A DNA stretch of 58,447 nucleotides from an uncultured Candidatus Saccharibacteria bacterium (GCA_964443675.1 CAYUDN010000003.1:1-58447); one strand, 5' to 3'. Positions 3,866-58,447 are shown, counted from the first letter of the stretch. Notes: a model not told the origin generated them from the sequence alone. Translations and numbers: made by a program.

Positions 3866-4522
3866 ATGTCAAAAGCACCTTTTATCGTGTTCGAAGGAAT
3901 TGATGGTTGTGGTAAAACCTCTGTTATCGCTGCTATTAAGAGAAGATATCCTTTTTTGTTTTGTACCAGAGAACCGGGTGGAACTTTTGTGGCGGAGCAG
4001 ATAAGAAGCCTTCTCCTTTCGCCAAAAGGAGCGTTGCTTTCACCACAAGAACAAATGACACTCTTTTTTGCCGCAAGACAAATACACCTCCATGAGGTAA
4101 TTGAATCGAAGCGGCAAGAAGGGGTTCCGGTCGTAAGCGATCGTTTCGATGGGAGTACTTTTGCCTTCCAGAAGTGTGTCGAAAGAGATGGATCAGGTAA
4201 CCATGAACTCATAGAATTTTTTATGAGTTTGCGAAACAATGTGGTTGCTGGCAAAGAACCATCGCTCTATATCTATCTTCAAGTAGACCCAGGAGTTGGT
4301 GCGCGCCGTCGCTCTACTGCTTCTGGTCAAGACGCTAACCATTTCGATAACGCGCAACTTGAAGAACAGGAAAGAAGAAGTGTTGCCTACGATGCATTCC
4401 TTGGAATGGTTCGTTTAAGCGGAGTATCTCGTGTTGAGGTGGTAGATGCGAATCAGCCTCTTGACCAAGTGATACAAGAATGTCTTTTTTTGATCGCAAA
4501 AGAACTTGGAACAGCTGCCTAG
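3866..4522 (+). CDS. tmk: thymidylate kinase
   Basis: Start at ATG 3866 (MSKAPFIVFEGIDGCGKTS P-loop), followed by REPGGT and DRF motifs. Confidence 0.9.
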   Translation: MSKAPFIVFEGIDGCGKTSVIAAIKRRYPFLFCTREPGGTFVAEQIRSLLLSPKGALLSPQEQMTLFFAARQIHLHEVIESKRQEGVPVVSDRFDGSTFAFQKCVERDGSGNHELIEFFMSLRNNVVAGKEPSLYIYLQVDPGVGARRRSTASGQDANHFDNAQLEEQERRSVAYDAFLGMVRLSGVSRVEVVDANQPLDQVIQECLFLIAKELGTAA

Positions 4523-4598
4523 GCAGCTTTTTTTGTTTGTGTTCTTGTATAGAATGCGGTACTATGTGCTCGGTTCTTGTTCTTATGAGAGGTTTATC

Positions 4599-5174
4599 AT
4601 GGACAGAAAAAATCTTGCAGTGATTGCTGCAATTTCTCAGGATGGTGTTTTTGCTCGAAACGGCACTCTTCCATGGGATTCAAAAAAAGATTTGCTTCAC
4701 TTCAGAGAGCTTACTCTTGGATGCTCTCTCGTTATGGGGAGGGGGACATGGGATTCTTTGCCGGACGCAAACAAACCTCTTCCGGGGAGAGAAAACATTG
4801 TTCTCTCAAGGTCCTTAGAAGGTCTTTCTTCTGATGTGAAAGTCGTCGCCACTCTTGGAGAAGCAATTGAGGTGGCAACTTGTCAAAAGATATTTTTTAT
4901 TGGTGGGCACGATGTTTGGTTCGAAGCTCTCCAGAAGTTCCCTGTTGATAATGTGTATCTGAGTACTATTGTTTCTTATGATAAAGAAACAGGGGCACAG
5001 GTTGTCTTATTTCCAGAACCTGGTGGGTCTATATACTTAGCACTTTTTCTCTCATCATTCGCTTCCATATTTCCTAAGTTTTCTCTTGTGTCAGAGAGGA
5101 TAGAAAGCGATGTGGATAGAAGAACCGGTTCACCTCTTTCGATTACTTTTTCACATTGGGGAAGGGTTGGGTAA
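4599..5174 (+). CDS. folA: dihydrofolate reductase
   Basis: Start at ATG 4599. DHFR-like sequence (LAVIAAISQDGVFARNGTLPW, LVMGRGTWDSLP, PLPGRENIVLSR). Confidence 0.8.
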   Translation: MDRKNLAVIAAISQDGVFARNGTLPWDSKKDLLHFRELTLGCSLVMGRGTWDSLPDANKPLPGRENIVLSRSLEGLSSDVKVVATLGEAIEVATCQKIFFIGGHDVWFEALQKFPVDNVYLSTIVSYDKETGAQVVLFPEPGGSIYLALFLSSFASIFPKFSLVSERIESDVDRRTGSPLSITFSHWGRVG

Positions 5175-5260
5175 ATGCTTGTAGTTGAGCCGATCATGCG
5201 TATGTGCATGATCGGCTTTCTGCTCTTACATTACGAGCAGAAATAGGGTAGTATAGAGAA

Positions 5261-6955
5261 ATGAATTCATACGATTATATTGTAAAGGTGCTCAATGATC
5301 ATTATGGTGCTTTTGTTACTTGTACGCTTTCACACAATGAAGAAAGTGTATTCGGTGACTATGCGACGAATGTTGCCTTTGCTCTTGCAAAGCATAGAGG
5401 TGTTTCATCAAAGGAGTGTGCTACTCAGATTGTGCAGGAACTAGGTGATGCTCTTTGTGAGTATGTAGAGAAGATAGAAGTTGCAGGTCCAGGGTTCGTT
5501 AATTTCTTCTTGAAGGATGACATACGAACAGAAGAGATAGAGGTATTCGCAAATGAAGTAATGTTTACTTCTCCCCAAGAAGGGAGGGTTATAGTTGAGT
5601 ACACCGATCCTAATCCTTTCAAACTTTTTCACATTGGACACTTGGTTCCTAATACAATTGGAGAAGCGATCGCTCGACTTCTCGAAGCAACAGGTAACAC
5701 AGTGACACGTATTTGCTATCAAGGAGATGTGGGGATACATGTAGCGAAGACGTTGTATGCGATGGTGCAAAATTTTGAACCTCTTCCCGAAGAATCCTCC
5801 TCGCTTCGCAAGAAGGTTGCTTACCTTGGTCGTGCCTATGCCTACGGTAACACTCTCTACGAAGAAGAAGTACATAAAGATGCTATTGTGGCGACCAACA
5901 AAGCAATCTTCGTTAGGAGTGATGAGCAATTAAACACCTTCTATGATCTTGGAAAAAAGTGGAGCCTGGAATACTTTGAAACAGTGTATAAAAAGTTGGG
6001 GACTTCATTTGATTACTACATTTTTGAAAGTGAAGTTGGGGAGAGTGGTAAAGCTATTGTTACGAAGCACTTAGGAACGGTCTTTGAGGAATCAGACGGT
6101 GCACTTGTGTATAAAGGAGAGAGGGTTGGGCTTCATACTCGTGTCTTCGTGAACAAAGAGGGTTTGCCAACATATGAAGCAAAAGAACTTGGTAACACCT
6201 ACAAAAAAGAAGCACTCGTTCCCCAATCTCTTGCGTCTTTTGTAGTAACCGCAAACGAGATTGATGAGTATTTTAAAGTAATCAAAGCAGTACTTCATGA
6301 AATCGACGCTCCTCTTGCAGATCGATTGGTGCACATCTCTCACGGCTTTCTTCGCCTCCCAGAAGGCAAAATGTCATCACGTACCGGTAACATTATTCCA
6401 GCAGAAGAGTTGATTGATATGGTGAAAGAAAAACTGCAAGATCGAGTCAGTAGTATGAAGGTTCAAGAAGAAGACAAAGCAACTCTTCTTAATGACGTTG
6501 CGGTAGGGGCGATCAAGTTCTCAATTCTTAAAAGTGCCCCAGGAAAAGATATGGTTTTTGATTTTGATAAGTCACTTTCTTTTGAAGGGGATTCCGGTCC
6601 TTATCTTCAGTATACTCATGCGAGACTTTGTGCACTTCTTGATAAAGCGGAAGGGTTAGGTATCACCGGTGTCGATGGATATGTGGTAGAGCACCCAGAG
6701 CGATCCCTTGAGGCGATACTTGCAAAGTATCCCTACATTATCACGAAGGCACACACAGAAGTAGGTCCTCACCATGTCGTGCAATATCTTCTTCAAATGA
6801 CGAGGCTTTTTAACAATCTGTACAGTCGTGTACAGATAGTTGATGAATCGCATCGTGATGAGAGTAAGTACTATGTGCTACTTGCTCTAGTAACTAGAAA
6901 TATTCTTGCCCACGGACTTCGTGTGCTTGGGATTGTGGCGCCGAAGAGAATGTAG
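5261..6955 (+). CDS. argS: arginine--tRNA ligase
   Basis: 564 aa with a class I HIGH region (FHIGHLVPN), the ArgRS-typical C-terminal anticodon-binding domain, and a final Met. Confidence 0.9.
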   Translation: MNSYDYIVKVLNDHYGAFVTCTLSHNEESVFGDYATNVAFALAKHRGVSSKECATQIVQELGDALCEYVEKIEVAGPGFVNFFLKDDIRTEEIEVFANEVMFTSPQEGRVIVEYTDPNPFKLFHIGHLVPNTIGEAIARLLEATGNTVTRICYQGDVGIHVAKTLYAMVQNFEPLPEESSSLRKKVAYLGRAYAYGNTLYEEEVHKDAIVATNKAIFVRSDEQLNTFYDLGKKWSLEYFETVYKKLGTSFDYYIFESEVGESGKAIVTKHLGTVFEESDGALVYKGERVGLHTRVFVNKEGLPTYEAKELGNTYKKEALVPQSLASFVVTANEIDEYFKVIKAVLHEIDAPLADRLVHISHGFLRLPEGKMSSRTGNIIPAEELIDMVKEKLQDRVSSMKVQEEDKATLLNDVAVGAIKFSILKSAPGKDMVFDFDKSLSFEGDSGPYLQYTHARLCALLDKAEGLGITGVDGYVVEHPERSLEAILAKYPYIITKAHTEVGPHHVVQYLLQMTRLFNNLYSRVQIVDESHRDESKYYVLLALVTRNILAHGLRVLGIVAPKRM

Positions 6956-7044
6956 CTTTGGCAGTTTTTTATAATGTGTCAACTCGTTTTTTGTTCTTAG
7001 AACAGGTATCCTGGAGGAGTACCTGTTCTTTACTTTAAGGAGAC

Positions 7045-7320
7045 ATGTCTATGGATTATTCAAGAATTGATTCCGACGACAAGGATCTTAGCGAAGCAAA
7101 AGTTCTTATTCTTGACCTTGTTCGTACAAGTCCTGTAACCGTGTGTGATGCAAGAAATTATTTGTGTAAAAGAACTTCTTTGGTGGTACGGTTACCAGAT
7201 GCACTTCGTGAACGAATTATGCATGAAGCAATCACTTCTTTGGTTAAGGAAGGGAAGCTTGCCGCAAGTGGAAGTTCTTTCATTAACCAAACAGTGCTTT
7301 CGTTCCCTGTTGTGGCATAA
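7045..7320 (+). CDS. hypothetical protein (91 aa)
   Basis: ORF with a good AAGGAG 6 nt upstream of the ATG. No recognisable family. Confidence 0.5.
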   Translation: MSMDYSRIDSDDKDLSEAKVLILDLVRTSPVTVCDARNYLCKRTSLVVRLPDALRERIMHEAITSLVKEGKLAASGSSFINQTVLSFPVVA

Positions 7321-7356
7321 GGTTGCATTCTTTTACTATTCTGGTACTATGAGTGT

Positions 7357-7540
7357 TATAGAAAGTGCGATGAAGGAACTAATCACTCCGGAGCATGGGA
7401 AGAACACTTGTCTCACGTAGGTGCAAGTAAGTAGAACCCATAATAACGAGGCACAAGCTTGTGCGAATCTAAGGTGGTACCACGACAAAGATCGTCCTTA
7501 GAAAATCAGCGATGATTTTCTTTAGGGCGATTTTTCTTTT
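7357..7540 (+). promoter_or_regulatory. T-box leader (Ile specifier) upstream of ileS
   Basis: T-box sequence AAGGTGGTACCACG (7471-7484). Stem I elements are present (GA/K-turn-like AGTGCGATGAAGG; distal GGTGCAAG). The candidate specifier is ATC followed by A (7382-7385). A terminator-like helix AGATCGTCCTTA...TTTAGGGCGATTT is followed by a T-run (7531-7540). Promoter: TTGCAT 7323-7328, 16 nt, TACTAT 7345-7350. Confidence 0.75.
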
Positions 7541-7597
7541 ATTACGTATCTACAATGACCGTCATTGTATCTTGCTTCACTACTATACTTATCTTCT

Positions 7598-10500
7598 ATG
7601 TCATCTTCTAATAATAATCAACCAAAAGATCTTTCTGTTAATGAGAAAGAATTAGCAACACTTCGTTTCTGGGAAGAGAATGCTGTTTTTGAAAAGTCTC
7701 TCAAGACTCCAGGAGGGGGTACACCAAAAGGAACATTTTCTTTTTATGATGGGCCTCCGTTTGCAACAGGGCTTCCTCATCACGGTTCTCTTATGGCGGG
7801 GACAGTAAAAGATCTCATTCCTCGGTATCACACCATGAAGGGAATGTTAGTGGATCGTAAGTGGGGATGGGATTGTCACGGGCTTCCGATTGAGAATTTG
7901 ATTGAAAAGAAGCTAGGTCTCAAGAGTAAAAAAGACATCGAAGAGTATGGTATCGACAAGTTCAACCATGACGCATATTGTAGTGTGCTTGAGTTCGAAA
8001 CAGAATGGAAGAAGATTATTCCTCGTCTTGGAAGATGGGTTGATATGAGTCACCCGTATAAGACAATGGATGCGACCTATACAGAAAGTATTTGGTGGGC
8101 ATGGAAGACGTTATACGAAAAAGGGTACGCATATGAAGGGAATAAAATGATGCATATTTGTCCTCGTTGTGAGACACCGCTTGCACAATCAGAAGTTGGT
8201 CTTGAGTATACTGATGTAACAGATCTCTCCGTGACTGCTGAATTTGAACTTGTTGACGAACCAGGAACGTACGTACTTGCATGGACAACGACTCCATGGA
8301 CACTTCCTGGCAATACTGCGCTTGCATTACATAAAGAGCACACCTATGTGAAAGTAAAAAGCACTTTTGAAGGAAAGGTGAATTATTTTATTCTTGCAAA
8401 GAGTAAGGTTGAGGAGTACTTTAAAGATAGTGAGTCGGTGGAAGTTATCGAAGAATTCAAAGGCGAGAAGCTTGTCGGATTAACGTATACACCACTTTTC
8501 CCATACTTCGTCACAAAAGAACTTGAACATAAGGAAAATATTTGGAAGATCTGGCATGCGGATTTTATTACCGAAGATGCAGGTACTGGCATTGCGCATG
8601 AAGCACCAGCATTTGGTGATGAAGATATGCAACTTGCAAAACTTCACAACATTCCAGTGATTAAGCATGTGAAGATGGATGGAACTTTTACTGATGAGGT
8701 TACTGATTTTGTAGGACTTAAGGTGAAGAAAGCGGGGGATACACAATCAACAGATGTGGAGATTATTAAGTGGCTTGCGCATAATGGGAAGCTTTTTGAG
8801 AAGCATAAGATTATTCACTCCTATCCACTTTGTTGGAGATGCAAAACACCGCTCCTTAACTATGCTACGTCATCATGGTTCGTAGATGTACCGAAGATGA
8901 AAGCAAAGTTACTCAAAGAAAACAGTCTGATTGGATGGACTCCGGAACATATTCGTGATGGAAGATTTGGTAAGTGGCTAGAAGGTGCTCGTGAGTGGGC
9001 GGTGTCTCGATCGAGATATTGGGGTGCACCACTTCCTGTTTGGAAAAATCACGATGGGTCGAAAGTGTTCGTGGTCGGGTCTCTTAAAGAACTTGCGAAG
9101 TACTCTGTTAAGAAACCAAAGAATACCTATTACGCAATGCGTCACGGTGAGTCAGTTTTTAATACCCTTGACCGACTTGATCGATCAGGGGATCCAACAA
9201 ATGGTCTAACTGAAAAAGGTATCGAACAAGCAAAACTGGCTGCACAGAAAGTGAAGGAATATGGCGTTGACCTTATTATCACTTCACCACTTCTTCGCAC
9301 ACAAGAAACAGCGACAGTCATTAGAAGTGTCACAGATATTCCTATTGTTGTTGACGAACGACTTGCAGAATTTAGCTTTGGGGACTACGAAGGAATGAAG
9401 GCAACAGAGTTTAGGGCTATTAAAAGTATTCATGAACATCTTGAGGAGCGAGTACCACATGGTGAATCTTTTAAAGATGTCGCGCATCGCTTCATGCAGA
9501 CAGTGCTTTCCTGTGAAGAAAAGTATGAAGGCAAAACGATTTTGTTCGTGACTCATGGTTCACTTTCGTATATGGGGGTGCATGAAGCAGAACTTGCAAC
9601 CGATGAAGAGATTATTGGTAAGAAACATAAAGAAGAAGGACTTAACATTTACAATGGCCAAGTACTTCACTTTACTCCTCTCCTTGTGCCACGCGATGAG
9701 ACAGGTGCAGTTAATCTCCATCGCCCTTTTATTGATGAGGTTGTTCTTTCTGTTGACGGGGAGGAGTATCATCGTATTGGTGATGTTTTTGATTGTTGGT
9801 TCGAGTCGGGGTCAATGCCGTTTGCGTCACTTCATGTACCATTTGAGAATAACGATCTTTTCAAGGAACGTTATCCTGCTGACTTTATTGCAGAAGGAAT
9901 GGATCAGACCCGCGGATGGTTCTATTCGCTTATCAACCTTGGTGTTGGACTTTTCGACGGCGCGCCATATAAGCATGTGATATGTACTGGTCTTATTAAT
10001 GCAGCTGATGGTAAGAAGTTAAGTAAAAGTCTTAATAATTACACTGATCCACTACTTCTTGTTGATCGTTACGGAGCCGATGCTTTCCGATATTACCTTA
10101 TGGCATCTCCTGTGGTGAAAGGGGAAGGTGTGAACTTTAGCGATAAAGATCTTGATGAAGTGTATAAAAAGAATATTATGCGACTTGATAATGTGGTCTC
10201 TCTTTATCGAATGGGTGAGGGTTCATATGCACCATCAAGTTCTTCTCCTTTACCACTTGATCGTTGGATGATAAGTCGCGTGCATGAACTTGTTGAAGAA
10301 ACAACAAGAGGGTATGACGCTTATAAGCTTGATGAAGCGACGAAGGGTATCGAAGGAGTGATTGATGATCTTTCGGTATGGTATACAAGAAGGTCTCGTG
10401 ATCGATTAAAAGGACTTACTGGAAAAGATGATGAAGCTTATGCATATGGAACACTTCGCTACGTATTACTTACTCTTGCGAAGGTGATGGCACCAGTGAT

Positions 10501-11059
10501 GCCGTTTATAGCAGAGCGTACATATCAAAGTGTAAAAGGGGAGAAGTTGTCAGTACATCTTGATGCATGGCCAGTAGCAGGGTTCGTGGATAGAGAGCTT
10601 ATACAAGATATGAAGGTAGTTCGAGAACTTGTGTCACTTGGTCTTATGAAGCGTACAGAACACAAGGTTACTGTGAAGCAGCCACTACAGTCAGTTACCT
10701 TTACCTGTCAAGTGAAGAAGGAGCTTGTGCCACTTATTCTTGATGAGCTTAATGTGAAAGAGGTTAAGTGTGATGTTGTCCAACAAGAAGAAGTGGTGCT
10801 TGATATGACAATTACCAAAGAGTTACAACAAGAAGGGGATATGCGTAAGCTTATCCGTGCAGTGCAAGAGTTACGTAAAGAAAAAGGGTTACAGCCAAGT
10901 GACATAATCACGCTTATGATTTCTTCACAAGAAGGTCTCGGTGATATGTCGACACTTCTTGTTGCTTGTAAAGTGGGTGGTGTAGTCGTTGACTCTTCTA
11001 CTGTTGGGACACAGGTAGAATTGTCTTCTTCTGTGGTTACGGTTGCAATAAAGAATTAG
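7598..11059 (+). CDS. ileS: isoleucine--tRNA ligase with an inserted histidine-phosphatase domain
   Basis: Start at ATG 7598. HIGH (PHHGSL), CP1 editing region, KMSKS (KLSKSL). About 200 extra residues with RHGES...THG lie between GSLKELAKYS and NLHRPFIDE. Confidence 0.9.
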   Translation: MSSSNNNQPKDLSVNEKELATLRFWEENAVFEKSLKTPGGGTPKGTFSFYDGPPFATGLPHHGSLMAGTVKDLIPRYHTMKGMLVDRKWGWDCHGLPIENLIEKKLGLKSKKDIEEYGIDKFNHDAYCSVLEFETEWKKIIPRLGRWVDMSHPYKTMDATYTESIWWAWKTLYEKGYAYEGNKMMHICPRCETPLAQSEVGLEYTDVTDLSVTAEFELVDEPGTYVLAWTTTPWTLPGNTALALHKEHTYVKVKSTFEGKVNYFILAKSKVEEYFKDSESVEVIEEFKGEKLVGLTYTPLFPYFVTKELEHKENIWKIWHADFITEDAGTGIAHEAPAFGDEDMQLAKLHNIPVIKHVKMDGTFTDEVTDFVGLKVKKAGDTQSTDVEIIKWLAHNGKLFEKHKIIHSYPLCWRCKTPLLNYATSSWFVDVPKMKAKLLKENSLIGWTPEHIRDGRFGKWLEGAREWAVSRSRYWGAPLPVWKNHDGSKVFVVGSLKELAKYSVKKPKNTYYAMRHGESVFNTLDRLDRSGDPTNGLTEKGIEQAKLAAQKVKEYGVDLIITSPLLRTQETATVIRSVTDIPIVVDERLAEFSFGDYEGMKATEFRAIKSIHEHLEERVPHGESFKDVAHRFMQTVLSCEEKYEGKTILFVTHGSLSYMGVHEAELATDEEIIGKKHKEEGLNIYNGQVLHFTPLLVPRDETGAVNLHRPFIDEVVLSVDGEEYHRIGDVFDCWFESGSMPFASLHVPFENNDLFKERYPADFIAEGMDQTRGWFYSLINLGVGLFDGAPYKHVICTGLINAADGKKLSKSLNNYTDPLLLVDRYGADAFRYYLMASPVVKGEGVNFSDKDLDEVYKKNIMRLDNVVSLYRMGEGSYAPSSSSPLPLDRWMISRVHELVEETTRGYDAYKLDEATKGIEGVIDDLSVWYTRRSRDRLKGLTGKDDEAYAYGTLRYVLLTLAKVMAPVMPFIAERTYQSVKGEKLSVHLDAWPVAGFVDRELIQDMKVVRELVSLGLMKRTEHKVTVKQPLQSVTFTCQVKKELVPLILDELNVKEVKCDVVQQEEVVLDMTITKELQQEGDMRKLIRAVQELRKEKGLQPSDIITLMISSQEGLGDMSTLLVACKVGGVVVDSSTVGTQVELSSSVVTVAIKN

Positions 11060-29911: not shown

Positions 29912-30258
29912 AGGAAGCAACACAACCCCGCCAACGGGATCCCGTTTCGGCGGGGTCTTTTTTTGCTTATTTCGTAACTATATCTACTCTAGTTGTTAGA
30001 CTGGTGGAGAGATTCGGCGATTGTTAAGGTGTTTTATTTTATCACTTCGTGATTCATACAACACTCGTGAACTTAGCCTAAAGAAAAAGCGTCAAAATCT
30101 TATAAAGAAAAGTCAGGAAGAAAGCTTTTCTTTATAAGATTTCGTAGACCGCTTTTTCGTTCGAATCTCCACGTATGACACGCAGGTGTCATACTCCAAG
30201 TACTCACTGATAACACAATATCCCATTAGGAGTACCTAAAGGGATATTGTGTTATCAG

Positions 30259-30647
30259 TGGAGGTGGGGAGATTCGAACTCCCGTGTAACAAGGTATGAA
30301 GTATGCATCTACTGTGCGTAGTTTGCTTGGTTGATGTTCGCATGAAGTCTTATGAGCAAACAAAATAACTTCATGCTAAGCATTATTCTTTCGAATGGTG
30401 TGCTATGCAACACATCATTCTACATCTTCTGTTATATTGCCCAGTATCTTCCCGGAGATACGAAAGAAGTGGACACCAGATTGGCGTAGATTACGCGAAT
30501 GCTGGAACTAGCCCTGCCATATAAGGTGAAGGGATAGCCTTGCCAGTTGACTTTGCAACATGGTTTCTCAAACGTTAACGAGTGCTTGAGAACTCTCGGC
30601 ATAGCACATAGTTCATGATCTTATTATCGATGCCAAAGTACACCCCC
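30259..30647 (-). ncRNA. ssrA: tmRNA (SsrA)
   Basis: 5' GGGGGTGTACTTTGGCATCGA pairs with 3' ...GGGAGTTCGAATCTCCCCACCTCCA (tRNA-Ala-like acceptor with G3-U). The candidate tag ORF GCA AAG...GCG TAA (30556 down to 30491) gives AKSTGKAIPSPYMAGLVPAFA. smpB lies immediately upstream. Confidence 0.9.
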
Positions 30648-33439: not shown

Positions 33440-33463
33440 TTCATTCGCAGATTATGCTCAAGG

Positions 33464-33536
33464 TGCATCCACCAGGACTCGAACCTGGGACCAGACGTGT
33501 ATAAGACGTCCGCTCTACCAACTGAGCTATGGATGC
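33464..33536 (-). tRNA. tRNA-Ile (anticodon UAU)
   Basis: Hand-folded 73-nt cloverleaf with all four stems fully Watson-Crick: GCATCCA/TGGATGC, GCTC/GAGC, GACGT/ACGTC, CCAGG/CCTGG. Anticodon loop CT-TAT-AC, discriminator A. Confidence 0.85.
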
Positions 33537-34966: not shown

Positions 34967-37606
34967 TTACTCCATATGCACCTGTTCTTTTTTCTTAATT
35001 GTTTCGAGAAGGGTGGGGTGATTCTCTAATCGCTCATCTTCTTTGATAAGTGCATGTGCTTCTTGTTGTGCAACTTCGACTAATTTTGGATTTTTGATTG
35101 CCTCCATTGCAAGGTCACTTATTCCCCACTGCTTGCCTTCTGTTAATGTGCCGATGCCACGTGTGAGCATATCTTGTTCTGCGAGCTCAAAACCATTTTT
35201 TGCTTTGACTAATCCCTTCAAGCGAGTGAAGGTTGTTTCACCAAAGCTTTCTGTGAAGAGATAACAGTAGGATTGGTGTGAAGATCTTCCGACACGGCCA
35301 CGCAACTGGTGGAGTTGCGCAAGACCAAATCTATCCGCATGTTCAATAATAATAACAGTAGCATTAGGAACATTCACACCGACTTCAACCACAGAGGTAG
35401 CAACTAATATGTCTGACTTTTTATCCAAAAAATCTTGCATTACTTCTTCCTTCTCTTCTTTTTTCATTTTGCTGTGAAGAATGTCGACAACGAATTCAGG
35501 GAAGACTTCTTCACTTAGACGCTTCGCTTCTTCTTTGACACTTTTTAGGATTCGCTTCTGTCTCTCCTCTTCATCTTGTTCATCAATGCGAGGGCAGATG
35601 ACATATACCTGTCTTCCTGCTTGCAGTTCTTGGCGTATTGCTTCGTACATTTCGTGACGTTTCGAAGCCTTCACAACCTCCGTGATAATTTTTTTGCGTT
35701 CTTTCGGTACTTCGTCAATTACCGTAAGATCAAGATCACCAAAAATAGTAAGTGCAAGAGTTCGAGGGATAGGGGTGGCAGTCATCGACAACAAGTGAGG
35801 TAACTTGTTCGCAGACCTCGCAGACTGAGGCAGACCTCGCAGACCTATCCGTGCGGTTTCGTACACGACACGTTTTATTTCTATGTCACTACCACCAAAG
35901 TTAACAAGAAAACCAACGGAGTAATCACTTCCTTGTAAATACGTAAGAAGTTGTCTCTCTTCTATGTTTCCAAGAAACTTAATTGACTTGAATTCAATAA
36001 TAACTTTTTCGTCAATGATAAAATCAGGTTGGTAGACACCAACTTTTTTATTGTGGTATACGACAGGTAGTTGTCTCTCCCTTGTGTAAGGAATAGAACG
36101 CTTTTGTAACTCAATTTCAAATGCATTCTGGTACACAAGTTCTTTATGCCCGAGTCCTAGTTGTTTCTTTAGATCAAAACAAATTCCTCGAAGTGTGTAC
36201 GATAATTCTTTATACAAAAACTCATCTGTGTTGTCTGCGTGGTCTGCATTAAGTCTGCGTGGTCTGCGAGAGAGCTCTGCTCTCTGTTTGACGCCGAAGC
36301 GGTGTTGTTCGTCGATGATAATGAGTGCGAGATCTTTGAATGCGACAGACTTCTGGATGAGTGCGTGTGTTCCGATCACGATGGAGATACGACCATCAGT
36401 CAGCCATTTGATGAGCTGCGCGCGTGAGATCGAAGTAGGCTCATCACTTGTTTTGCTCGGGTACTTCTTGCAACCACTTCCTGTTAAGAGACCGATCTCG
36501 ATACCGGTACCCTTGAAGTATTCGATGAAGCTTTCGAAGTGTTGCTTGGCAAGAATTTCTGTTGGTGCCATGTAGGCAACCTGAAGTGGTGTGCCGTGCT
36601 CTTCTTCGCTATTAGAAATAGTTGCATATGCTACCACCGCAGCAACGAACGTCTTGCCACTTCCTACATCACCCTCAAGAAGCCTTCCCATCGGCTTATG
36701 TGCTTTCATGTCATCAAGAATAGTTGCGATCGCATTCTTCTGGGCATTCGTTGGGGTAAAAGGGAAGCGCTTCATGAAGTCATTTAATGACTTTTTGGTG
36801 ATAGTAACTTCGTGTGCAACAGTATGACTGAGCTCTGCGCGCTCTTTCTCTTGTTGTAGTTTGAGATAAAAAATTTCTTCGAAGGCGAAGCGTTTGCGCG
36901 CCGCGATAGTGAGCGCTTCGTTCTTAGGGAAGTGAAGATAAAGAAGCGCGTCTTTGAGGTACGGAAGATGAAGTCGCTTAAGAGTTGCTTCTGGTATTGG
37001 ATCAATGATGTGATCGAGGACTCCTTTTGCAACAGCTTTTTTGATAAGCGTGTAGAGATACAGCGAAGAGACACCTTTGGTCTCGGGGTAGATCGGAGTG
37101 AGGAATGAAGTATCGTTCGAAGCTCCTTTTTCTTCTTTCTGTTCTTGTGATGTTTCGACGTGAGCAAGAAGTGTCTCTTGTGCAGCGGGGATCTCACCCG
37201 TTACTTTTTCGATGCTTGGATTAGAAAGAAGGAAACCTTTGCTGTCTTCTTGTACCACTCCCATGACTTTTACTTTGGTGCCTTCTTGATACATTTTGCC
37301 AATGTAGGCTTGGTTGAACCATATCGCCCGAATGAAGCCGGTGTTGTCTACGATACGTGCCTCGGTAAGTGGTATGTGTCCGCGGAAACTTCTTCGTACT
37401 ACTACTTTTTCCATCACACCATAAATGGTGACAGACTGACCTTTGGTGAGTGACCCGGTGCCTGCGATTTCACGAAGGTCCGCATAGCGAAAAGGGAAGT
37501 GAAAGAGAAGATCTTCTATGGTGGTAATAGAAAGACGATGAAGACCAGCTGCGTGATCTTTGTCTATTTTTGCAAGAGTAGTAATGTTCTCATGAAGAGG
37601 GGACAT
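34967..37606 (-). CDS. recG: ATP-dependent DNA helicase RecG carrying an in-frame 153-codon insertion
   Basis: 879 aa: N-terminal wedge/OB region, motif I GDVGSGKT, motif II DEQH, motif III MTATPIPRT, motif VI QLRGRVGRS. Confidence 0.9.
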   Translation of the reverse strand: MSPLHENITTLAKIDKDHAAGLHRLSITTIEDLLFHFPFRYADLREIAGTGSLTKGQSVTIYGVMEKVVVRRSFRGHIPLTEARIVDNTGFIRAIWFNQAYIGKMYQEGTKVKVMGVVQEDSKGFLLSNPSIEKVTGEIPAAQETLLAHVETSQEQKEEKGASNDTSFLTPIYPETKGVSSLYLYTLIKKAVAKGVLDHIIDPIPEATLKRLHLPYLKDALLYLHFPKNEALTIAARKRFAFEEIFYLKLQQEKERAELSHTVAHEVTITKKSLNDFMKRFPFTPTNAQKNAIATILDDMKAHKPMGRLLEGDVGSGKTFVAAVVAYATISNSEEEHGTPLQVAYMAPTEILAKQHFESFIEYFKGTGIEIGLLTGSGCKKYPSKTSDEPTSISRAQLIKWLTDGRISIVIGTHALIQKSVAFKDLALIIIDEQHRFGVKQRAELSRRPRRLNADHADNTDEFLYKELSYTLRGICFDLKKQLGLGHKELVYQNAFEIELQKRSIPYTRERQLPVVYHNKKVGVYQPDFIIDEKVIIEFKSIKFLGNIEERQLLTYLQGSDYSVGFLVNFGGSDIEIKRVVYETARIGLRGLPQSARSANKLPHLLSMTATPIPRTLALTIFGDLDLTVIDEVPKERKKIITEVVKASKRHEMYEAIRQELQAGRQVYVICPRIDEQDEEERQKRILKSVKEEAKRLSEEVFPEFVVDILHSKMKKEEKEEVMQDFLDKKSDILVATSVVEVGVNVPNATVIIIEHADRFGLAQLHQLRGRVGRSSHQSYCYLFTESFGETTFTRLKGLVKAKNGFELAEQDMLTRGIGTLTEGKQWGISDLAMEAIKNPKLVEVAQQEAHALIKEDERLENHPTLLETIKKKEQVHME
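35810..36268 (-). mobile_element. TIR-bounded GxxExxY (PD-(D/E)XK) module inserted in-frame in recG
   Basis: 36-bp inverted repeats at 35810-35845 and 36233-36268 (31/36 identical with one gap), each made of four CGCAGAC heptads. The interior encodes GHKELVY...DFIIDEKVIIEFK...LLTYL...GFLVNFG. 459 bp = 153 codons with no stop. Confidence 0.75.
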
Positions 37607-57967: not shown

Positions 57968-58171
57968 AGGGGCTACTTCTTACTTTATGCAAAGTAAGTA
58001 GTTATCGTAGTCATTTGAAAAAATAATACGAAGCTACTTTTGAAAAATATACATCAGTTTATTTTTCAAAAGGTGACGCTTCAAATTACATTACACAATA
58101 AAGTGCTTGTCCGTTACTTTTTTTCGGAAAAGTAATTAGGACGTTTTTGTTTTTCTTTTGTCACACTCTAT

Positions 58172-58447
58172 ATAAATAGAGTTTGATCCTAGCTCAGGAT
58201 GAACGCTGGCGGTGTGGATAAGGCATGCAAGTTGAACGGAACTAATCACATGGAAGTACTAAGCAAGTTAAAGTAGCAATACGGCAATAAGCGAAGTATG
58301 GAAGCGTGACAGTTTAGTAGCAAACGAGGTAGTAATATTTAGGAACGCACCCCGAAGTCGTGAATAGCCTTTCGAAAGGAAGAGTAATACACGATGGTAC
58401 CGCAAGGTTAAAGATTTATCGCTTCGGGAGCGGCTTAAACAGTATCA
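58172..58447 (+). rRNA. rrs: 16S ribosomal RNA, 5' part (runs off the window)
   Basis: AGAGTTTGATCCTAGCTCAGGATGAACGCTGGCGGTGTGGATAAGGCATGCAAGTTGAACGG. The helix-6/V1 region looks longer than in E. coli, and the GGCGGACGGGTGAGTAA region is divergent (GTAGCAAACGAGGTAGTAAT). Confidence 0.9.

Follow-up and report, generated by a model that had tools for sequence, protein, structure and literature searches.

What does a phosphatase do inside an isoleucyl-tRNA synthetase (IleRS)? The question is raised by the ileS gene in a 58,447 nt stretch of DNA from an uncultured Candidatus Saccharibacteria bacterium (GCA_964443675.1, CAYUDN010000003.1:1-58447), hereafter called the window. The gene encodes a type-2 IleRS with what is predicted to be a complete PhoE-like histidine phosphatase nested in it. 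Aminoacyl-tRNA synthetases (aaRS) are among the most conserved enzymes, and the gain of further catalytic domains by them is chiefly associated with eukaryotes. In this case a phosphatase, predicted to be active, is nested in an essential aaRS of bacteria, and this holds for much of Patescibacteria, a superphylum of ultra-small and mostly uncultivated organisms. We suggest, at a probability of roughly 0.8, that the phosphatase in connective peptide 2 (CP2) makes this housekeeping IleRS bifunctional, and that the phosphatase activity itself is selected.

The nested domain and its host enzyme

An earlier note on this DNA placed about 200 extra residues between GSLKELAKYS (aa 505-514) and NLHRPFIDE and read them as a PGAM-like histidine phosphatase domain within the catalytic core. 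The coordinates and size are accurate, and the quoted motifs RHG (9140-9148) and THG (9551-9559) are present. An alignment with human cytoplasmic IleRS breaks at query 515/chain 493 and restarts at query 717/chain 498. The distance from the PLPVW anchor to LHRP is 224 aa in the window IleRS versus 27-33 aa in insert-free type-2 enzymes (IleRS2), a net gain of about 196-200 aa from the insert. The insertion is thus clean, and the host has lost no residues to it. The junctions and the inserted segment are:

9005..9109 (+): N-terminal junction, SRSRYWGAPLPVW at 9005-9043, then the short helix VGSLKELAKYS at 9074-9106, leading into the insert
9110..9712 (+): inserted segment, aa 516-716, PhoE-like histidine phosphatase and linkers
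9686..9739 (+): C-terminal junction, the clade-invariant linker VPRDETGAV at 9686-9712, then NLHRPFIDE at 9713-9739, where IleRS resumes

The search against PF00300 that the earlier note proposed was highly significant, with the catalytic Arg/His/Glu set aligned. In the whole protein, His_Phos_1 (PF00300) matches aa 523-668 with E=1.9e-34 and 119 bits (gathering cutoff 21.7); nt 9104-9712 alone gave E=6.7e-36, and scores were 119-124 bits overall. A profile of the insert family searched against the PDB gave PhoE/YhfR (1EBB/1H2E) as best match, with E=1.6e-24 over the whole catalytic core, followed by Hydrogenobacter phosphoserine phosphatase, CobC, GpgP and others. An AlphaFold model of the domain alone has a predicted local distance difference test score (pLDDT) of 89.7 and a predicted template modelling score (pTM) of 0.87. 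Its template modelling score (TM) is 0.74-0.77 to PhoE (1h2e/1ebb) and about 0.75 to GpgP, PSP1 and Rv3214. In the full-length AlphaFold2 model the phosphatase is the best predicted part (pLDDT 88-95). By profile and predicted structure, the insert is a complete PhoE-like branch-1 histidine phosphatase domain.

Other members of the superfamily were tried and rejected. For true 2,3-bisphosphoglycerate-dependent phosphoglycerate mutase (dPGM), TIGR01258 gave 41 bits against a cutoff of 81.7 and NF038349 84-87 against 225; all dPGM equivalogs scored far below cutoff, and dPGM structures align with profile positions of about 20-120 only, the N-terminal half. The PGAM-like label therefore holds for the superfamily, given the PF00300 match and the full Arg/His/Arg/Glu/His set, but the domain is of the PhoE-like phosphatase type and not a phosphoglycerate mutase. 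Alpha-ribazole phosphatase CobC (TIGR03162, 81-85 bits, cutoff 162.9), the phosphohistidine phosphatase SixA (TIGR00249, 33 bits, cutoff 74.5) and phosphoserine phosphatase PspA (NF045917, 69-73 bits, cutoff 350) were rejected in the same way. An automatic JGI label of 'SixA' on one relative is unsupported, since the SixA score lies below its cutoff.

The insert is joined to its host by linkers conserved in the clade, KN-[TI]-Y-[YF] ahead of RHG and VPRDETG-x-[VI]-NLHRP past the last strand. In many of the more distant hosts, 32-47% identical to the window IleRS, the insertion site lies between two CxxC pairs that form a zinc-knuckle element of the connective peptide; these cysteines are lost in the clade of the window. 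A study of Priestia megaterium IleRS2 gives the HUP core as residues 40-168 and 513-632 (PMC10485003). By those limits, the insertion point corresponds to about P. megaterium residue 478, in CP2 and some 30-35 residues ahead of the second half of the core. The insert thus sits in a CP2 surface element and not inside core strands. The claim of a module within the catalytic core stands in so far as the domain is nested and not terminal, and fails in that it lies in CP2, about 30 residues before the second core half.

The ileS open reading frame (ORF) is uninterrupted at 7565-11059 (+) and encodes 1164 aa counted from TTG. The probable start is the ATG at 7598, because a database protein 100% identical to the product (P0001) measures 1153 aa. 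The features of the host enzyme are:

7598..11059 (+): ileS coding sequence from the probable ATG start, type-2 IleRS with nested phosphatase (TIGR00392, P0001 and PDB matches)
7778..7789 (+): HIGH signature, here H-H-G-S, aa 72-75, with the fourth His replaced by Ser
8282..8608 (+): editing motifs of connective peptide 1 (CP1), WTTTPWTLPGN at 8282-8314 and GTGIAHEAP at 8582-8608, invariant alignment blocks
9797..10030 (+): second half of the catalytic (HUP/Rossmann) core, with WFESGS at 9797-9814, ADFIAEGMDQTRGWF at 9878-9922 and KLSKS (KMSKS loop) at 10016-10030
10259..10945 (+): anticodon-binding domain (PF08264, aa 899-1043) and type-2 C-terminal domain (PF19302/DUF5915, aa 1045-1127), from Pfam

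The product scores 825 bits against the ileS equivalog TIGR00392 (cutoff 621.4), matched in two stretches flanking the insert, and the Pfam tRNA-synt_1 match is likewise divided in two with PF00300 between. Residues 215-421 match isolated IleRS editing-domain structures (1wk8, 1ue0). In the PDB, IleRS2 and eukaryotic IleRS match with E of about 1e-200, IleRS1 with 1e-81 or weaker, and Foldseek also puts IleRS2 first. By these comparisons the host is a bona fide type-2 (eukaryote-like) IleRS. The earlier note's identification of the host was borne out by TIGR00392 above cutoff, the editing motifs, the anticodon-binding domain and the type-2 C-terminus. Its statement that HIGH is kept was only partly right: KLSKS and WFESGS are present, but the fourth His is replaced (PHHGS, nt 7775-7789), which had not been flagged.

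HHGS keeps the first His and the Gly of HxGH. Of the 120 closest relatives (described below), 83 have H at the fourth position, 19 have T and 18 have S, which makes 37 of 120 with S or T. The K, S, K and S of KLSKS are invariant in all 120, and the adenylate-pocket motifs WFESGS and AEGMDQTRGWF are also there. In our table of loci, the S/T variants of HIGH co-occur with KLSKS or KISKS and not with KMSKS. Five further loci labelled Sungbacteria or Parcubacteria (L057, L063, L068, L069 and L072) encode a phosphatase-bearing IleRS with HIGH in the form 'P-G-I-H-H', the GXHH variant. HHGS in the window differs from the published GXHH variant, which is reported to confer mupirocin hyper-resistance on IleRS2 (PMC10485003). 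A search of the 58-kb window, the only stretch searched, found no second IleRS gene and no free His_Phos gene. From its sequence the gene looks like the housekeeping IleRS of the cell; given HHGS, full aminoacylation activity is assumed.

Distribution, catalytic residues and insertion sites

As close relatives of the window IleRS we used the 120 best clusters in a collection of 5.8 billion proteins (NCBI, JGI, ENA and Logan), which are 61-84% identical to it. All 120 list PF00300 together with IleRS domains, and anchor mapping put the phosphatase at the site it has in the window IleRS, termed slot A, in every one. A scan with junction peptides found the segment in at least 116 GTDB species-representative genomes, counted as one genome per species. 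We retrieved 80 loci, and the overwhelming majority bear labels of Patescibacteria/Candidate Phyla Radiation (CPR): Paceibacterota, Nomurabacteria, Parcubacteria, Sungbacteria, Peribacteria and many generic 'Saccharibacteria'. L058 and L059, both short contigs with a length of about 1.3-1.4 kb, are labelled Elusimicrobia and Caldimicrobium and are possibly mis-binned. All full-length loci carry the domain ahead of WFESG.

An exhaustive phmmer search against 1.84 billion representatives at 50% identity found the more distant hosts mentioned above. They carry the domain at the identical point, past the GSLxEL helix and ahead of (D/N)LHRPxID. Among the best 150 representatives, every multidomain protein that was checked, by Pfam scan or IleRS motifs in part of the 150, was an IleRS or IleRS fragment; the remainder were free phosphatases of one or two domains. 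A word-index search with the insert alone gave 14 free phosphatases at 30-37% identity and no fused relatives, and is uninformative on distribution. The nearest free-standing relative (P0121) has TfoX_C, an ATPase and GntR/aminotransferase as neighbours, with no link to translation.

These data bear on the suspicion that an assembly or binning chimera, or a frameshift, joined a phosphatase gene to ileS. The ORF is continuous, and the GC content across the ileS region is even (0.41-0.46). The same architecture occurs in all 120 closest clusters, from independent sources, in the species representatives counted above and on contigs up to 1.6 Mb. The gene order thyA-folA-argS-ileS-recO...metG is kept on a 530-kb contig from a relative with 63% identity. 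A chimera, which the earlier note had named as a way for its claim to fail, is hardly conceivable with the same architecture in hundreds of independent assemblies.

The putative active site of the insert consists of the following features:

9140..9163 (+): first part of the phosphate pocket, R526-H527-G528 at 9140-9148 (H527 the predicted nucleophile) and N533 at 9161-9163
9296..9298 (+): R578, second phosphate-binding Arg, in the SPLLR motif; invariant
9368..9370 (+): E602, predicted general acid/base, corresponding to PhoE E83; in 120 of 120 relatives and 84 of 85 embedded copies
9371..9463 (+): cap/substrate-specificity region, about aa 603-633; conservation within the insert is lowest here
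9554..9556 (+): H664, second catalytic His, in the THG motif; invariant

The residues R526, H527, R578, E602 and H664 align with R9, H10, R59, E83 and H151 of PhoE. The surrounding motifs LLRTQET, PHGES and VTHGS lie at nt 9290-9310, 9455-9469 and 9548-9562. The R/H/R/E/H set is invariant in all 120 close relatives, and N533 and the GES positions are nearly so. In 85 embedded copies from divergent hosts, covering all insertion sites, the five catalytic residues are kept in 84, and the remaining copy has E replaced by D. Mean identity to the window IleRS over the 120 relatives is 44% for the insert versus 77%, 70% and 60% for the host segments, and most columns of the cap show 0-30% identity. 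In a codon comparison with three relatives, the proportion of nonsynonymous differences (pN) in the insert was 0.11-0.31 versus 0.62-0.76 for synonymous differences (pS), and the host segments gave similar values. Since synonymous sites are saturated at these pS values, pN << pS is a qualitative result, and in that sense it points to purifying selection on the insert.

Alternatively, the domain might be a pseudo-enzyme that has lost catalysis and is retained as an appendage, either for structure or for binding tRNA or protein. The highly variable cap would fit this, and there is precedent, as non-catalytic appended domains are common in aaRS evolution, many of them in eukaryotic aaRS. Pseudo-enzymes, though, normally lose their catalytic residues, and here R/H/R/E/H is kept throughout the close relatives and in all but one of the embedded copies. 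A purely structural role also fits poorly with the HAD phosphatase, described below, that replaces the domain and has its DxDG(T/V) motif intact. We regard a dead domain as very improbable.

The phosphatase is also found at other sites in IleRS. Besides slot A, we define slot B, which follows KMSKS by about 55 residues and precedes the anticodon-binding domain, and slot M, the loop from WFESG to the ADFIAEG strand; in the window IleRS both are empty (slot B at about nt 10184-10234). Enzymes with the phosphatase in these other slots came to light among the representatives and in a search for homologs of P0150, an IleRS that has one His_Phos in slot M and another past KMSKS. The 118 full-length relatives of P0150, whose source labels are Gracilibacteria, Peregrinibacteria and Peribacteria, carry the domain in B only (45), A only (40), M+B (10), M only (5), A+B (3), A+M+B (2) or not at all (13). 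The representatives also include tandem A+A forms and one four-copy protein. The latter (P0135, 1161 aa, ENA, contig of about 3.9 kb) has the N-terminal half of IleRS followed by four consecutive His_Phos_1 domains, of which the three full-length ones that were compared are 38-41% identical; the contig probably ends before the gene does.

Phosphatase copies within one protein are 29-40% identical and about equally far from free domains. This identity excludes recent duplication as their source; either ancient duplication or independent capture could account for them. In a coarse neighbour-joining tree of host N-terminal halves, built without support values, slot use appears to be clade-specific. 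Some sequences without the insert fall among carriers, which implies loss of the domain, and others, one of them named Verrucomicrobia, branch outside.

A protein from a JGI metagenome (P0354, 1504 aa) has two tandem HAD phosphatases in slot M (DFDGV at 570 and DNDGV at 772) and no His_Phos. Its first 560 or so residues share 58% identity with P0150. As HAD here takes the place of His_Phos, what is kept on IleRS would be phosphatase activity and not a fold. We consider this non-homologous replacement the strongest hint that the activity itself is maintained.

The slots, plus one site in the CP1/editing region, hold further domains in relatives: GNAT, Ser_hydrolase/alpha-beta hydrolase, NUDIX, P-loop kinases, DUF559 and an IS200-type Y1 transposase, usually accompanying His_Phos. 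IleRS of up to 1790 aa (P0355, P0371, P0376, P0377, P0379; P0225; P0306, P0319, P0320, P0370) have extra modules beside His_Phos, namely P-loop kinases (AAA_33/AAA_18/Zeta_toxin-like), GNAT, DUF559 (Vsr-like endonuclease fold) and the IS200-type Y1 transposase. DUF559 and the transposase suggest that insertions derived from mobile elements use the same IleRS loops. One form is encoded at 4066-8718 (+) of L078, a complete 'Candidatus Peribacteria' chromosome (OZ246415.1) that uses genetic code 25 (UGA = Gly). In brief, this IleRS of about 1540 aa nests NUDIX at aa 221-326 in the CP1/editing region, His_Phos_1 at aa 635-803 in slot A and Ser_hydrolase at aa 902-999, just past LHRPYID.

This variety of guests raises the question of whether the phosphatase is a neutral or selfish passenger in tolerant loops, or a moonlighting metabolic enzyme that uses IleRS as a scaffold or for co-expression, in either case unrelated to aminoacylation. 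Such a role would agree with the unrelated domains housed in the same slots, including DUF559 and the transposase, with the nuclease nested in RecG of the window (see below), with three geometrically unlike slots and the occasional loss of the domain by carriers, and with CPR genomes being streamlined and fusion-prone. Against it, all multidomain relatives that were checked among the nearest representatives join the domain to IleRS, and the neighbouring ArgRS and MetRS have no insert. The phosphatase is found in about 90% of the relatives sampled in two deep lineages. Recurrence at three slots, up to four copies and the replacement by another phosphatase fold in P0354 are more than expected under neutrality. 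All these points are still compatible with an unrelated metabolic substrate. We consider this explanation unlikely.

What the fusion may do

We return to a bifunctional IleRS whose phosphatase activity is selected. In its favour are the invariant catalytic residues, the recurrence in three slots, the up to four copies and the displacement by an unrelated phosphatase fold, all of which we take as signs of selection. Other observations weigh against it. The cap, which normally shapes specificity, is the most variable part, so that no conserved small-molecule pocket can be read from it. HHGS lacks the fourth His of HIGH, and the full-length AlphaFold2 model is weak in the synthetase core (mean pLDDT 74). 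The 13 insert-free relatives among the 118 of P0150 indicate that IleRS works without the domain. The slots accept domains of the selfish-element type (DUF559, IS200 Y1 transposase), so the loops are permissive, and the differing geometry of slots A, M and B argues against a fixed coupling to the synthetic or editing site. The nuclease in RecG is a second domain-in-domain insertion into a housekeeping gene of the same window, and such insertions may be a general habit of these genomes.

By analogy with PhoE, the domain is predicted to hydrolyse a phosphomonoester via a phospho-His527 intermediate. The phosphate would be bound by R526, R578, H664 and N533, with E602 as the putative acid/base. 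The connection with IleRS probably consists in tethering or co-localisation, which would place the phosphatase on the same molecule, at the same stoichiometry and near bound tRNA and nucleotides, and not in precise channelling. We prefer tethering because slots A, M and B are geometrically different loops that do equally well, and because slot M, by the topology of the Rossmann fold, lies on the side facing away from the active site.

For the substrate we can only speculate, as did the earlier note, which suggested that the domain could act on a nucleotide or tRNA-end phosphate or be regulatory. Our favoured candidate, at less than even odds, is a nucleotide-type phosphomonoester that arises at the synthetase or close to it, such as adenosine monophosphate (AMP), other nucleoside monophosphates or by-products of adenylate chemistry, or one in a nucleotide-salvage context. 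It is favoured because PhoE-type enzymes are broad phosphomonoesterases, because the co-nested modules (adenylate-kinase-like/PNK-like P-loop kinases, Nudix and HAD_2) are nucleotide enzymes, and because many genes of the conserved neighbourhood serve nucleotide metabolism: thyA, tmk and folA in the window and dCMP deaminase, HIT and a YfbR-like HD protein at the L082 locus. A phosphorylated tRNA or RNA end, healed before charging, and an unrelated metabolic phosphoester are weaker candidates of about equal standing. A protein or phospho-His target is improbable.

The RNA-end candidate can be put in a specific form, in which the domain would be a built-in tRNA end-healing or anti-toxin module that removes a 3'-phosphate, a 2',3'-cyclic phosphate or another block from damaged or toxin-modified tRNAIle in the manner of Pnkp. 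The combination of a kinase (AAA_33/AAA_18/Zeta_toxin-like) with His_Phos or HAD within one IleRS resembles the pair of kinase and HAD phosphatase in T4 Pnkp, and NUDIX is nested in the L078 enzyme. Tethering to a tRNA-binding enzyme would also provide the specificity that is missing from the variable cap. However, we know of no member of the histidine phosphatase superfamily that acts on RNA ends. The AAA_18/AAA_33 matches are weak (28-49 bits) and fit nucleotide kinases equally, and the kinases occur in a minority only. A dedicated end-healing module is thus rather unlikely.

A broader and tentative idea is that the IleRS of Patescibacteria is a modular platform, with nested catalytic domains that act on the ligands of the synthetase itself. 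The modules would be the phosphatase in up to three slots, the HAD phosphatase, the P-loop kinase, Nudix, GNAT and the serine hydrolase. They might clear or recycle nucleotides derived from adenylate (AMP, by-products related to pyrophosphate or of the Ap4A type, or toxic mimics of aminoacyl-adenylates) or else repair tRNAIle with phosphorylated ends. This is possible, though doubtful. If it were true, aminoacylation would be coupled in cis to a second chemistry, an expansion so far described mainly for eukaryotic aaRS.

The bifunctional IleRS offers a lead to a link between tRNA charging and phosphate-ester chemistry, be it product clearance, nucleotide salvage or tRNA repair, in bacteria of little-understood physiology. 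It also matters for annotation, as the insert divides the IleRS profile matches and relatives receive generic or misleading public names. The slots in turn mark positions at which IleRS tolerates insertions of 200-400 residues, which is useful for protein engineering.

Neighbourhood and comparison with known systems

The gene run around ileS in the window is thyA, tmk, folA, argS, ileS, recO, a surface protein, an AI-2E transporter, metG and tatD. Between argS and ileS lies a 91-aa ORF at 7045-7320 (+) with no Pfam match. A RecG-like helicase (RecG wedge, DEAD and Helicase_C) is encoded at 34967-37603 (-), with a PD-(D/E)XK nuclease (PDDEXK_3, aa 466-579, E=3e-31) nested between the helicase lobes. 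A tRNA-Ile gene with anticodon UAU is located at 33462-33536 (-), found by ARAGORN and with an Rfam tRNA score of 71.7 bits; this tRNA would decode AUA directly, without lysidine modification. The window also holds a transfer-messenger RNA gene at 30256-30647 (-, 95.9 bits) and the first 243 or so positions of a bacterial 16S rRNA gene at 58171-58447 (+), which ends at the window edge.

A full-text literature search found no paper describing IleRS, or any aaRS, with a histidine phosphatase domain. CP1, CP2, the ARD2 'INS' insertion and GXHH are treated by Brkic et al. 2023 (PMC10485003) and in a 2026 preprint on about 96,000 GTDB IleRS architectures (10.64898/2026.02.03.703510); a term search of the two main texts found no mention of a phosphatase. 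Public records name the relatives variously as 'isoleucyl-tRNA synthetase', 'class I tRNA ligase family protein', 'hypothetical protein' or 'GNAT family N-acetyltransferase', and one reads 'isoleucyl-tRNA synthetase/phosphohistidine phosphatase SixA/...'. Both parts belong to well-known families, and their conserved fusion is, as far as we searched, undescribed in the literature.

The domain order of the window IleRS is that of P. megaterium IleRS2 (8C8U/8C8V), Thermus thermophilus IleRS (1ILE) and the yeast and human cytoplasmic enzymes. It shares with type-2 IleRS a HUP core interrupted by CP1, the editing domain and CP2, followed by the KMSKS loop, the anticodon-binding domain and a C-terminus of the DUF5915 type, and like them it lacks the zinc domain of IleRS1. 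Type-2 enzymes that have been solved or described lack the extra of about 200 residues between the PLPVW strand and DLHRP; the window enzyme has the insert and HHGS. The insert itself resembles Geobacillus stearothermophilus PhoE/YhfR, with identical catalytic equivalents, a compact size of about 200 aa and no dPGM-specific insertions, and is also related to CobC, GpgP (Rv2419c), Rv3214 and Hydrogenobacter PSP1. Members of the PhoE group are free-standing and 25-29% identical to it. The nested domain differs from them in its RHGE(A/S)xxN motif, which lacks the usual Trp, in its variable, clade-specific cap and in the conserved linkers to IleRS (KN-Y-Y and PRDETG).

A curated precedent for an IleRS with an extra enzyme domain is NCBIfam NF040702 (ileS_w_GNAT), and in relatives GNAT occupies slot M, often together with the phosphatase. 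The window protein is not a member (297 bits, cutoff 1999, no GNAT match), and we found no comparable curated NCBIfam model for the phosphatase-bearing IleRS. T4 and bacterial Pnkp offer a functional analogy only, with a P-loop kinase and a phosphatase on one RNA-handling polypeptide, as in relatives with nested kinases. The Pnkp phosphatase is of the HAD type and not homologous to His_Phos; we saw no ligase partner, and the window protein itself lacks a kinase. A PhoE/CobC-like phosphatase fused to a nucleic-acid enzyme is known from the RNase H/CobC-type acid phosphatase of Mycobacterium tuberculosis (Rv2228c type, NF005567). This model is the third-best NCBIfam match of the insert at 82-86 bits, far under its cutoff of 326. 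The Rv2228c-type fusion is end-to-end and has another partner, whereas that of the window IleRS is nested. Its breadth, its signature of selection, its recurrence in several slots and its displacement by HAD set the IleRS fusion apart from a sporadic one.

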